A stretch of 64,000 nucleotides of DNA from an uncultured delta proteobacterium (GTDB taxonomy: Bacteria > Myxococcota_A > Polyangia > Palsa-1104): assembly GCA_963785725.1 (NCBI GenBank), contig CAWAWS010000004.1:159739-223738 (forward strand), read 5' to 3'. Numbering within the stretch: the first letter of the stretch is position 1; the number at the start of each line of letters is the position of its first letter. The position numbers were made by a program, and so were the translations under genes. This document shows positions 417 to 4,292 of the stretch, piece by piece. Under the pieces are notes generated by a model. It was not told the DNA's origin and did no database searches. It saw only the letters and a program-made list of their open reading frames with translations.

Positions 417-581
417 CCGCGCCGGCCTGAGGCTGAGCGCCCCGTAGCCGCTGGGAATCCGCCCACCGAGCGACCGGAGCACGAGCGCGTGAGCTCGGCG
501 GCGTCTCGATCGCGAGACGGCGAGGCGTCGCCAACACCTTGCGGCGCAATGGCTTAGGCGCGCTCGCGGGCGTGACCGGCG

Positions 582-597
582 AGGTACGATTGTTGCT
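582..597 (+). promoter_or_regulatory. Putative sigma54 (-24/-12) promoter of the Flp-Hint gene
   Basis: AGGTACG-ATTG-TTGCT; GG(583-584)-N10-GC(595-596), just upstream of ATG 611. Confidence 0.6.
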
Positions 598-610
598 TTT
601 CGCTGGCGCC

Positions 611-2212
611 ATGCGAGTCAGGGGAAGCCTGCGCCGAACCCGCGGCGTGACGGCGATCGAGTACGGCGTGGTGCTGGTGCTGGTGGCGATGAGCGTCATC
701 ATCGGCTACCGCACCTTCGGCAAGCGCGTTCGCTGCGCCATGGCCAGCGCCGGCGACAAGCTCGCCGACTCCGATGGGCCGAGCGAATGCCAGCCGTCGC
801 CCACGGTCGCCCAAAACGGCGGCGGCGGCAGCGGCGGCTGCCAAGGCGCCGCCTGCTTCCTGCCCGGCAAGTGCTTCGTCGCCGGCACGCTGGTGCTCAC
901 CGACGAAGGCGAGCAGCCGATTGAGACCATCACCGTCGGCGAGCGCGTGTTGGCGCGCGACGAGGCCGGCGTGCTCGGCTGGCAGCCGGTGCTGCGCACG
1001 TTCGCGCGCTCGACGGACGCGCTGGTGCGGCTGACGCTCGACGACGACAACGCGATCGAGCTGACGCCCGAGCATCGGCTGTTCGTCGACGGGCGCGGCT
1101 GGGTGGAGGCGCGCGACGTGGCGGCGGGCGAGTCGCTCGTCGACGCCGGCGGCGCCGACGTCGTCGTGGGCGCGGTCGAGTCGGTCGCGCGCACGGCGCC
1201 GGTCTTCAACCTCGAAGTGGCCGAGCTGCACAGCTACTTCGTCGGTGGACGGCAGATCTGGGCGCACAACGACTGCGGCGACGGCGAGGGATCCGGCAGC
1301 GGCGGCAGCGGCGAGGGATCCGGCAGCGGCGGCAGTCCGCCCGCGAGCAGCGGTGGCGGCGGATTGGCGCCGCCGTCGATCGCGCCGCCGACGGTCGCGC
1401 CGCCGACGGTGTCGACGGAGTCGGGCGGTCCCGGCATCCTCAGTCCGCCACCGCCACCGCCGCCGCCGGCTCCGGCCGTGCCGCCGCCGAGCATCATCAC
1501 GCCCAGCAGCGCGGCGCCGCCGGCGGTCACGCAAGGCAGCACGGCCGTGGCGCAGGCGACGCCGCAGCCGACGACGGCGTCAGCCGTGCTGTCGTCGGTG
1601 CCGAGCGGTCACTTGACGCTGTATGCCGACATCGAGGCGACCGGCATGCTGGGCGGCAACATCCCGACCGTGCAGAACATGCAGCAGGGCGCCGTCGGTC
1701 ACGCGTTCATCGGCTTCAACGAAGGCAACGGCAACGAACGGCTCATCGGCATGTGGCCCAACATCTACAACAACCAGTATTACGATCCCAGCCGTCCTTG
1801 GGCGTCGGTCGGCGGCCTCGTCATGGAGCCGGACGAAGACCACTACGACAGCCCGCACCTGCGGCAGCAGCGCTATCCGTTGACGCCGGCGCAGGTCGCG
1901 GCCGTCAATCAGTACATCAACTCGCATCGCAACCCGCAGTCGCCGTACAACCTGTTCGGCTGGCGCGGCGGGCAGAACTGCGTGACGTTCGCCTGCGGCG
2001 CCGTCAGCGCGGCCGGCTATACGCCGCCGCCGTACAGCATCTTCGGCTTTCCCAACCCGAACGCGCTGCACAACAACTTGCCGCCGCGGCCGCCGACGCC
2101 GCCGCGACCGCCGACGCCGCCGTCGCCGTCGCGCAGCAGCAGCTTCGGCAGCATCTACAGCTCGCACAGCTCGGGCAGCGTCTACAGCACGCACAGCAGC
2201 ACCGGCCCCTGA
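611..2212 (+). CDS. Flp/Tad prepilin - Hint domain - Pro/Gly-rich linker - permuted papain-like C-terminal domain fusion (putative effector), 533 aa
   Basis: Leader RRTRG|VTAIEYG plus hydrophobic helix; Hint CFVAGTLV...TPEHRLFV...VFNLEVAELHSYFVG...AHN (872-1270); C-terminal GHAFIG...YNLF...NC. Confidence 0.85.
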   Translation: MRVRGSLRRTRGVTAIEYGVVLVLVAMSVIIGYRTFGKRVRCAMASAGDKLADSDGPSECQPSPTVAQNGGGGSGGCQGAACFLPGKCFVAGTLVLTDEGEQPIETITVGERVLARDEAGVLGWQPVLRTFARSTDALVRLTLDDDNAIELTPEHRLFVDGRGWVEARDVAAGESLVDAGGADVVVGAVESVARTAPVFNLEVAELHSYFVGGRQIWAHNDCGDGEGSGSGGSGEGSGSGGSPPASSGGGGLAPPSIAPPTVAPPTVSTESGGPGILSPPPPPPPPAPAVPPPSIITPSSAAPPAVTQGSTAVAQATPQPTTASAVLSSVPSGHLTLYADIEATGMLGGNIPTVQNMQQGAVGHAFIGFNEGNGNERLIGMWPNIYNNQYYDPSRPWASVGGLVMEPDEDHYDSPHLRQQRYPLTPAQVAAVNQYINSHRNPQSPYNLFGWRGGQNCVTFACGAVSAAGYTPPPYSIFGFPNPNALHNNLPPRPPTPPRPPTPPSPSRSSSFGSIYSSHSSGSVYSTHSSTGP

Positions 2213-2219
2213 CGTCGCG

Positions 2220-3155
2220 TCAGCGGTCGAGCGGCTCGAGGATCGTCGGTTGGCGCGTGAGGCGCGTCAGATCGAAGTCGGCCACGAGCTCGCGCGCGGT
2301 GACGATCGCGTCGGGCGCGCACAGGCCGAGCGAGCCGGCCAGCATGCCGACGACGCGCGCCGCCGGCACGCCGCGCTCGCGCCAGCTGCCGACGGAGATG
2401 GCGCCGTGCCGCTTCGACAGGCGGCTGCCGTCGGCGCCGAGCACGAGCGGCACGTGCGCGAACCGGGGCGCCGTCAGCTCGAGCGCGCGATAGAGCAGCA
2501 GCTGGCGCGCGGTCGAGCCCAACAGGTCGTCGCCGCGCAGCACGTCCGTCATCGCCATGGCCGCGTCGTCGACGACCACCGCCAGCTGATAGGCGGTCAC
2601 GCCGTCGGCGCGGCGGATGACGAAGTCGCCCACCGTCGCCGCCACGTCGTCGGCCTGCGCGCCGTGCACGCCGTCGACGAAGGTCACGACTTCGGGCTCG
2701 ACGCGCAGCCGCACCGACGGCGTGCGACCGGGTGGTCCCGACGTGCGCTCGCGGCAGGTGCCGGGATAGCGCGGGCCGTCGTCGCCGGCGCCGTGGGGCG
2801 CGGTGGCGGCGCGGGCCACTTCGGCGCGCGAGCACCAGCAGCGGAAGGCGCGCCCCGACGCCAGCAGCTGCTCGACGGCGGCGTCATACAGCGGCTGGCG
2901 CTCGGATTGCCGATAGGGCGCGTACGGACCGCCTGGGCGCGGCCCTTCGTCGCAGTCGATTCCCAGCCAATCCAGGTCGTCGAGGATGCGCGCTTCGGCG
3001 CCGGCGATGACGCGCGGGCGGTCCAAGTCCTCGACTCGCAAGACGAACGCGCCGCCGGCCGCGCGCGCCCACAGCCACGCCGCCAGCGCCGTGCGGGCGC
3101 CGCCCAAGTGCAGATCGCCCGTCGGCGAAGGTGCGAAACGACCGCGATGGCCCAT
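2220..3155 (-). CDS. gluQ: Glutamyl-Q tRNA(Asp) synthetase
   Basis: RFAPSPTGDLHLG, RVEDLD, CWCSR, YPGTCR, YQLAVVVDD, LSKR; no anticodon-binding domain. Confidence 0.92.
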   Translation of the reverse strand: MGHRGRFAPSPTGDLHLGGARTALAAWLWARAAGGAFVLRVEDLDRPRVIAGAEARILDDLDWLGIDCDEGPRPGGPYAPYRQSERQPLYDAAVEQLLASGRAFRCWCSRAEVARAATAPHGAGDDGPRYPGTCRERTSGPPGRTPSVRLRVEPEVVTFVDGVHGAQADDVAATVGDFVIRRADGVTAYQLAVVVDDAAMAMTDVLRGDDLLGSTARQLLLYRALELTAPRFAHVPLVLGADGSRLSKRHGAISVGSWRERGVPAARVVGMLAGSLGLCAPDAIVTARELVADFDLTRLTRQPTILEPLDR

Positions 3156-3174: not shown

Positions 3175-3753
3175 GTGCACGACTGGGTGGGTCCATTGAT
3201 CCTCGCCGCGGTGGGCTGGTCGGCTTGGCGGGCGCGCTCGCGCGATCGCTGGCTGCAGCGCGAGCTGGCGCGTATTCCCGATGTCACGCTGTCGGATCTG
3301 AAGGAGGGGCTGCGCGTCCGCGTCACCGGCATCGTCGAAGCCGCCGGCACGCCGCTGACCGCGCCCTACTCGGGCCGCGTCTGTCTCGCCTGGTCGACGC
3401 GCGACATCGCCCGCGACAGCCTGGCCGAGCGGCTCGTCCGCTTCGCCGCCGGCGACTTCGTGCTGCGCGGCGACGACGGCGGCCGCGTGCTCGTGCGCGC
3501 CAGCGAAGCCGAGCTCGTCGTCGCCATGAACCACCCCATCAGCGTCGAGCGCGTCGGCGGCGCGGCGGTGCGGCGCGAGTCGGTGCTGCAGCCGGGCGAG
3601 CACGTCACCGTCGTCGGCACGCCGCGCCAAGAGCCCGATCCGACCGGCGTCGGCAGCTATCGCGAGCCGCCGACGCGGCTCGTCTTCGGCGCCGGCTCGT
3701 GGGTGCTGGCGGGCGCCGCGGCGACGCAGGTCGGCGTTCGCGGCCGATGGTGA
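3175..3753 (+). CDS. Membrane-anchored GIDE-like domain protein
   Basis: N-terminal TM; VRVTGIVEAAGTPLTAPYSGRVC pattern; ends GSYREPP. Confidence 0.6.
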   Translation: MHDWVGPLILAAVGWSAWRARSRDRWLQRELARIPDVTLSDLKEGLRVRVTGIVEAAGTPLTAPYSGRVCLAWSTRDIARDSLAERLVRFAAGDFVLRGDDGGRVLVRASEAELVVAMNHPISVERVGGAAVRRESVLQPGEHVTVVGTPRQEPDPTGVGSYREPPTRLVFGAGSWVLAGAAATQVGVRGRW

Positions 3754-4292
3754 TGCACGACGTCTTCGGCGCGCTCATGCTCGGCATCTTCGCCGCGGCG
3801 CCGATCCTCACCTTTCGCGAGCGCTTCGGCTTCTGGCGGGCGACGCGCATCGCCGATCTGGTCGACGGCGAGCGCCTCCGCGTCGACGGCGTCGTCGAGC
3901 CCATCGGCAAGCCGCTGCGCGCGCCGTGGCTCGAGATGGACTGCGTCGCCTACAGCATCTGGCGCGAAGATCCGCCGCTGCCCGAGGAGTCCGGCGAATA
4001 CGACGAGGCGCAGGACTTCATGCTCCGCGACGGCGCCGGCGACAGCGTGCTCGTGCGCGTCGGCGATCGCTTCCAATTGCGCGCCGGACGACAGATTCGC
4101 CTGCCGCCGCATGTCGACGCCCACGTCATTCAGGCGGGCGATTTGGTGAGCGTCATCGGCGTCGCCGCGGAAGTGCCGGCGCTCGACGGCATGGGCGCGA
4201 CCTACCGCGAGCCGCCGCGGCGCTGGATTTTGTGCGGCAGCGACCCGCAGCCGCTCGTCATCGTGGGCCGAACACGACGGGGTAGTCGCTGA
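3753..4292 (+). CDS. Paralogous membrane-anchored GIDE-like domain protein
   Basis: ATG overlaps the upstream TGA; LRVDGVVEPIGKPLRAPW..DC and GATYREPP resemble the upstream gene. Confidence 0.6.
   Translation: MHDVFGALMLGIFAAAPILTFRERFGFWRATRIADLVDGERLRVDGVVEPIGKPLRAPWLEMDCVAYSIWREDPPLPEESGEYDEAQDFMLRDGAGDSVLVRVGDRFQLRAGRQIRLPPHVDAHVIQAGDLVSVIGVAAEVPALDGMGATYREPPRRWILCGSDPQPLVIVGRTRRGSR

Follow-up and report, generated by a model that had tools for sequence, protein, structure and literature searches.

A Tad-type pilin joined to a Hint domain and a toxin-like tail in Polyangia: a candidate pilus-trafficked class of polymorphic toxins

Introduction

Polymorphic toxins of the PT-HINT type (Rhs, MafB, CdiA and the WXG/LXG carriers) place a conserved trafficking head and a Hint domain ahead of a variable toxin, with cognate immunity genes downstream and tandem arrays of such units (PMC3482391). 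In the 300,000 of 357,715 characters of that survey that were covered here, the words pilin, Flp, pilus and TadE occur 0 times. A second point of reference is the Kil pilus, with which Myxococcus xanthus kills on contact and which has the tips KilL, KilM and KilN and the adapters KilK and KilO (PMC8460266, PMC12075869). According to the sections available, Kil has Tad genes split over two clusters, an FHA-fused ATPase, many FHA proteins, a short secretin, a single ATPase and no TadD pilotin (PMC8460266). The accessible parts of three reports leave the killing toxins or effectors unidentified (PMC8460266, PMC12075869, PMC12428579). Within the available text of PMC12075869 and its 8 supplements there is no mention of a Hint or intein, and no toxin-fused pilin is reported for Kil. 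Minor pilins that carry a cargo or adhesin (TcpB-TcpF, PilB/PilC and the type II pseudopili) also present or export a protein at the pilus tip. As far as the same source describes them, what they carry is either a non-covalently bound cargo or an unvarying adhesin, and they are without a self-cleaving linker, toxin polymorphism or immunity genes (PMC12075869).

Here we analyzed a gene in a 64,000-nucleotide stretch of DNA (the window) from an uncultured member of the Polyangia. Its product resembles the PT-HINT polymorphic toxins in general plan, and its family shares toxin families with them, but the head is a Tad-class type IV pilin. The architecture had originally been put forward as one not recognized from earlier descriptions. 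For the family this stands as far as our literature search went, with subscription papers mostly outside its reach: the pilin-Hint toxin family was found nowhere described. A single member, however, is already in print. WP_394825747 of Pendulispora albinea, which we recovered as locus L184 with a pilin head, Hint, ARC tail and Imm74 gene, is listed as an ARC toxin homologue in Fig. 5A of PMC12605009. In the available text of that paper Flp pilins are named once, as anchoring elements among ARC-toxin partners, and neither a Hint domain nor Tad delivery nor the family is mentioned.

Architecture of the pilin-Hint-tail gene

The gene at 611..2212 (+) is an open reading frame of 533 amino acids. 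It begins with a basic class III leader (611..646, +) ending in Gly12 (codon 644-646), behind which a prepilin peptidase is predicted to cut. The Flp-type pilin helix that follows (647..754, +) has a hydrophobic core, Glu17 at +5 and Tyr18 at +6, and its mean hydropathy reaches 2.37 in a 19-residue window. Arg11-Gly12 and Glu17 are conserved to at least 90% in a 30-row alignment (A5). In size the protein is unlike a plain Flp, which is small and without a globular domain, and it is best described as a pilin-domain fusion.

Between the helix and the Hint lies a spacer (734..871, +) with four cysteines, Cys42, 60, 77 and 82, which are likely to form two periplasmic disulfides. Cys77 and Cys82 are invariant in alignment A1, and of 101 members of the family, 93 have a CxxxxC-type pair directly ahead of the Hint. 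The PT-HINT or type-A BIL-like domain (872..1270, +) contains Cys1 (Cys88), a TxxH motif (Thr152, His155) and a terminal His219-Asn220 (1265-1270) with Asp-Cys directly behind it. Among solved structures its sequence is closest to that of 2lwy, a bacterial intein-like domain (E 4e-17). A flexible Gly/Ser/Pro-rich linker (1271..1603, +) then leads into the toxin-type tail (1604..2086, +), and the protein closes with a Pro/Ser-rich, low-complexity end (2087..2209, +).

The original prediction, made from the window's letters, had read a leader Gly, Glu+5, Tyr+6 and hydrophobic helix at the start, a complete Hint from a Cys at 872 to His-Asn followed by Asp-Cys, and a long Gly/Pro linker. All of these are present, with the Hint coordinates exact and 109 post-Hint residues that are chiefly Pro, Gly, Ser and Ala. 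It had also looked to profile matches for both named domains, and here the outcome is divided: Pfam PT-HINT scores well over its cut-off on residues 94-220 (70.4 bits against 27.7), but Flp_Fap matches residues 10-48 below its curated cut-off (E 1.4e-6, 28.4 bits against 32.2). The genome's own short Flp, in its Tad cluster, is likewise without a Pfam Flp_Fap match.

A predicted permuted NlpC/P60 tail

Sequence searches with the tail returned little. It has no Pfam match, a comparison of the tail alone with 10 candidates of similar length found no relative, PDB sequences gave no useful match, and NCBIfam gave weak intein matches only. Across four homologous tails, His364, a Trp, a Tyr-Asn-Leu and Cys457 are invariant. 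The predicted structure (pLDDT 74.5) matches the Vibrio cholerae effector TseH best (6v98; Z 10.4, rmsd 3.6 over 123 residues, 15% identity). TseH, the deSUMOylase DUF862 and YiiX lead the top 8 structural matches (Z 6.0-10.4), which also include PLAAT4. Foldseek ranks TseH first as well (E 0.06), and the Atlas assigns the tail to a TseH-like cluster (73% PF25218) at 0.96. The model shows a papain-like fold in which a catalytic-type His (His364, 1700) comes before the Cys (Cys457, 1979), the arrangement that defines the permuted NlpC/P60 group.

Within that group phospholipase activity has been shown for TseH and Tox-Act1, according to the available part of PMC12994826, and lipid attack is therefore the likeliest activity of the tail. 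Going by the model, we consider it most likely a phospholipase or acyl-hydrolase acting on lipids; it may alternatively be a peptidase. The tail shares with TseH and Tox-Act1 both the fold and the His-before-Cys order. It differs in that those two are type VI secretion cargo with immunity proteins, whereas this tail is only 15% identical and its activity is a prediction.

Neighbors and paralogues

A convergent glutamyl-Q tRNA synthetase-like gene (2220..3155, -) lies 7 bases past the stop codon, which leaves no room for an immunity gene behind the 611..2212 gene. The downstream immunity expected of a polymorphic toxin is thus missing at this copy. In three congeners (G001, G002, G004) the genes that flank the 611..2212 gene here are neighbors without it, the glutamyl-Q tRNA synthetase-like gene sitting near a cNMP-binding gene with no toxin gene between them, and a fourth (G003) has a different neighbor at this site. 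Further along the window, at 3175-4292, two tandem genes with weak GIDE-like matches have the glutamyl-Q tRNA synthetase-like gene on one side and a gene for an Obg-family ATPase on the other.

PT-HINT matches number six in the genome, and all six genes have the head of pilin, Cys spacer and Hint. The paralogue heads are 41-46% identical to that of the 611..2212 gene, and a tail-versus-tail comparison of the four intact genes among the six detected no homology. One paralogue tail matches a papain-fold glutamine deamidase family and two have no Pfam match. Two of the six change frame past the Hint. Frame-changing pilin-Hint genes are found at L009:7973-9530 (-), L012:8432-11008 (-) and L055:2705-4025, and the change may be an assembly error or decay. 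At none of the six loci of this genome does a small same-strand gene follow the pilin-Hint gene, so that toxicity of the 611..2212 copy is presumed from its fold and from the family to which it belongs. One of the six genes is 3 kb from the Tad cluster, and the other five lie away from it. Tail to tail with the paralogue on contig C7 are a gene with a phage-baseplate/type VI OB-fold and two unknown genes (L012:6920-9328).

A family with a constant head and variable tails

We searched 1.84 billion cluster representatives with a profile and examined the best 150, of which 77 have a pilin segment ahead of the Hint. A looser profile raised the number to 101, and part of what it added was inspected. 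Since the same head recurs in those 77 and in every PT-HINT gene of the genome, the pilin-Hint architecture is not a chance arrangement. In the set from other genomes (L148-L232), no long Rhs-type locus gained a score with the profile. The head gave no usable match in the Atlas and no match to phage records.

Within the Hint, Cys1 is kept in 80 of 80 family members and His-Asn in 79 of 80. The residue behind the Asn varies, in keeping with cleavage and not splicing. The strict Gly-x4-Glu-Tyr/Trp motif is found in 67 of 97 members. Some members lack Glu+5, and those of the L055 and L075 operons, which are among them, have Gln.

For clustering the tails, 97 of 107 members were kept after those with two Hints, no His-Asn or a short tail were dropped, and these 97 tails fell into 65 clusters. 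Of 26 pairs with heads 60-70% identical, only 2 share a tail. Pfam identifies barnase-type RNases, HNH/GH-E nucleases, Ntox15/16/21, ADP-ribosyltransferases, a deaminase, glutamine deamidases, an M91 peptidase, a lipase and a glycosyltransferase. These names cover a minority of the family's tails; most have no Pfam match, and this group offers dozens of candidates for new toxin domains. A comparison of four DNA stretches brought up no more than fragments of relatives, and no tail swap. Three proteins (P0031, P0033, P0062) have two Hint domains in series and possibly carry two payloads.

Immunity genes and linkage to Tad operons

The L148-L232 set holds 39 pilin-Hint loci, of which 4 end at the locus edge and 35 could be judged. 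At 24 of these 35 a same-strand gene lies within 200 bases behind the pilin-Hint gene, and 11 of those 24 genes match named immunity families, several under the cut-off. Many of these loci come from three related genomes (G514, G571, G608) and are not independent; each of the three has 9 to 11 Hint matches, and a pilin head precedes most of them. Barstar comes next after 6 of 7 Pfam RNase tails, Imm74 lies behind an ARC tail, and CdiI_N behind Ntox21. Barstar with barnase and Imm74 with ARC are cognate pairs in the part of PMC3482391 available.

Several of these genes are built directly into Tad operons. In G443 one Tad operon closes with three pilin-Hint-toxin genes, and behind each of them stands a small gene (DUF4279, CdiI_N and DUF6334); in L075 the Tad operon runs directly into a pilin-Hint-Ntox16 gene and then DUF6714. 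In G263 (L147:9823-11642) the TadE pilin belonging to a complete Tad operon itself carries a Hint and Ntox21, with CdiI_N next, which suggests a second family of tip-pilin toxins. Within Tad operons, two pilin classes thus bear the same Hint-toxin unit, and this is the strongest argument for the pilus as the route.

A Kil-like Tad machine

The genome's Tad cluster, on contig C15, contains TadE, Tad, a second TadE-like gene, the short Flp, RcpC, an FHA-fused ATPase, two T2SSF genes, FHA proteins and a second ATPase. A second operon encodes a 405-aa secretin, a TPR lipoprotein and an A24 prepilin peptidase. The last gene of the Tad pilin operon is a 77-aa pilin without a toxin, 35% identical over 80 aa to the head of the 611..2212 protein and with its cysteines aligned. 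TadB, TadC and CpaB share 34-36% identity with their counterparts in a Myxococcus kil-like cluster.

The machine resembles Kil in its two separate Tad clusters, FHA-fused ATPase, many FHA proteins, short secretin and TadE/G-like tip pilins. It departs from Kil in having two T2SSE ATPases against the one of Kil, and a TPR lipoprotein beside the secretin. By gene content it is Kil-like, not strictly Kil. The idea that the toxin head is a KilK adapter was dropped; a different 42-aa pilin of the genome resembles, by eye, the small pilin of the Myxococcus cluster. Also unsupported was a proposal that pilin-fused toxins replace the needle-less T3SS*: FHIPEP was found in 5 of 5 genomes tested, carriers among them, with flagellar and T3SS types unsorted. 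A lone FlhA/SctV-family gene lies at C7:204881-206857 with no other export-apparatus genes nearby, and the flagellar copy is on contig C29.

An upstream element in common with the Tad promoter

Sigma-54 promoters have a -24/-12 consensus of GG-N10-GC, which we used to score sites. Such a promoter-like site (582..597, +) lies 29 bases ahead of the ATG of the 611..2212 gene, and farther upstream is an imperfect 17-bp palindrome, YGAGGCTG-N-CAGCCTCR with 3 mismatches (428..444, +). A 9-base motif had been spotted by eye upstream of all six pilin-Hint genes, that is, after the fact. By our own gene calls it stands upstream of 35 of 7795 genes, both divergent Tad operons among them. The motif is half of a perfect 17-base palindrome in the divergent promoter of the Tad cluster, and this palindrome occurs as a single copy in the 8.9 Mb genome, with two further copies at 2 mismatches. 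Neither the Tad promoter nor the long Flp gene described below had been used in finding the motif.

With up to 3 mismatches, the palindrome is found at -77 to -183 of all six pilin-Hint genes against 98 of 7765 called genes. A sigma-54-like site scoring at least 9 lies at -28 to -44 of all six against 548 of 7765. A gene for an FHA sigma-54 activator directly follows the C15 paralogue. The palindrome is likely an upstream activator site common to the toxin genes and the Tad cluster promoter. It was absent near the 7 congener cpaB loci examined. A reading of the upstream motif as a known RNA was dropped, Rfam having given no match in 7 loci.

Adjoining the Tad cluster on C15 is a gene for a protein of about 1170 amino acids (L008:10205-13681, -) with a Flp-type start, long Gly/Thr/Pro repeats and no Hint, and with the same palindrome and sigma-54-like site upstream. 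Its product is possibly a pilus-borne fiber or adhesin.

Proposed delivery route and alternative readings

The pilin-Hint family is genuine and widespread, and we take it to be a new way of delivering polymorphic toxins: at family level we found a constant head with variable tails, tails from toxin families, a processing peptidase and downstream immunity. We put at roughly 0.75 the probability that these proteins form a polymorphic toxin class that is trafficked as Tad minor pilins and would be freed by Hint cleavage. The original prediction had proposed such a class, with the pilin as its trafficking domain, a Tad/Kil pilus as its vehicle and C-termini that differ behind the His-Asn. It has fared well. 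The tails do vary, and matches to toxin families are frequent among them; the genome encodes both a Kil-like Tad machine and an A24 peptidase; and unrelated tails, cognate immunity genes and Tad-operon linkage all speak for the class.

In the sequence of events that we envisage, the toxin genes and the Tad cluster would be co-expressed through their common sigma-54 promoter type. By analogy with type IV pilin biology, the protein would then be inserted in the membrane and the leader cut at Gly12 by the A24 peptidase, with the passenger on the periplasmic side. The pilin helix would insert the protein at or near the pilus tip, since so large a passenger cannot pack along the fiber. Given the chemistry of PT-HINT and BIL domains, the Hint would cut after Asn220 and possibly also before Cys88, with no splicing. 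A minor subunit of the Kil-like Tad pilus would in this way cut itself and free its tail at a neighboring cell, and the tail of this copy is predicted to attack membrane phospholipids there, as TseH and Tox-Act1 do. Among the points that weigh against the pilus route, a passenger of 500 residues must pass the secretin, and those tails that act in the cytoplasm must enter the target. We give even odds to the further proposal that Polyangia-type Tad/Kil pili would be a toxin-delivery machine of their own, using dispersed, co-regulated Flp- and TadE-type toxin pilins with Hint release on contact.

The pilin helix could instead be a borrowed export signal or membrane anchor, with the Hint freeing the tail in the periplasm as a diffusible, contact-free toxin that would leave through the type II-like piston action of Tad, a type II system or vesicles. 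This we regard as improbable, since most members retain the leader Gly and Glu+5, the same Hint-toxin unit has been independently fused to a TadE pilin inside a Tad operon, and a promoter element is held in common with the Tad cluster. Nor do we think it at all probable that the tails are surface-displayed hydrolases or adhesins serving feeding or attachment. Some tails are indeed lipase-, peptidase- or adhesin-like (Stv), the 611..2212 copy has no immunity gene, and permuted NlpC/P60 proteins include housekeeping lipid enzymes in the available part of PMC12994826, but RNase, DNase, deaminase, NAD-acting and ADP-ribosylating tails with cognate inhibitors would be senseless as scavengers.

Other alternatives keep the pilus route and concern the target. 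The toxins may be aimed mainly at kin or competing myxobacteria, a kin discrimination like that of SitA or CdiA/Rhs, which overlaps with our preferred explanation and which we hold tentatively, at somewhat less than an even chance. Cognate immunity genes, tandem toxin-immunity arrays, a patchy presence with insertion at a variable site between conserved genes, and the intra-specific reading given to ARC/Imm74 pairs (PMC3482391, in the part available) all point this way. Against it, the six genes here, and several in three large Polyangiaceae genomes, have no immunity neighbor, immunity could merely protect the producer during synthesis, and Kil pili have been shown to kill unrelated prey (PMC8460266, PMC12075869, as available in part). 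Copies without immunity genes, the 611..2212 gene included, might conversely be directed at microbial eukaryotes, fungi or protists, as prey or grazers. The absence of immunity genes at six of six loci would fit this, as would the papain-fold glutamine-deamidase-like tail in the genome; missing immunity is taken as a sign of anti-eukaryotic action in the available part of PMC12994826. We think such a target unlikely, because TseH, whose fold is the nearest, acts against bacteria, as does the related Tox-Act1, and immunity genes may lie elsewhere in a genome that is 88% complete.

If delivery as Tad minor pilins is correct, type IV filaments would join the delivery routes of polymorphic toxins, with the pilin itself as the trafficking domain; if release on contact holds as well, Kil-type contact killing would gain its first named effector class. 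With the family come candidate Kil-type effectors, the immunity genes cognate to them and, in Pendulispora, carriers that are in culture, so that the toxin question of Tad/Kil becomes directly testable, at least outside the Myxococcaceae.

Distribution of the family and other Hint proteins

The nearest named carriers are Polyangia, Polyangiaceae, Kofleriaceae and Myxococcales records, and Pendulispora species, P. rubella and P. albinea, carry members. Four congeners have RcpC and gave no pilin-Hint match. Within the order, matches came from 2 of 41 further genomes, and in one of the two the pilin head is divergent. At family level, matches were found in 24 of 301 Polyangiaceae genomes, part of them Rhs-type, and in 26 of 208 Myxococcaceae genomes. 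None of the 20 Myxococcaceae loci examined, with 9 candidates scored per genome, has a pilin head, and the family is accordingly not shown in the group in which Kil killing has been demonstrated. A sample of 400 other genomes from the phylum gave matches at E 1e-25 in 21 of them, with 6 candidates scored per genome. There, 17 of 29 loci gave an ORF under the pattern used, one of which is a TadE fusion, and the narrow Flp profile scored no phylum-sample ORF outside the genome studied here.

Relatives also carry other Hint proteins (G003, G006, G012, G031, G032, G036 and G040; loci L016, L017, L019-L023, L031 and L032). Some are Cys-rich, lipoprotein-like repeats that end in a Hint, and others are lipoproteins with the Hint right behind the lipid-anchored Cys.
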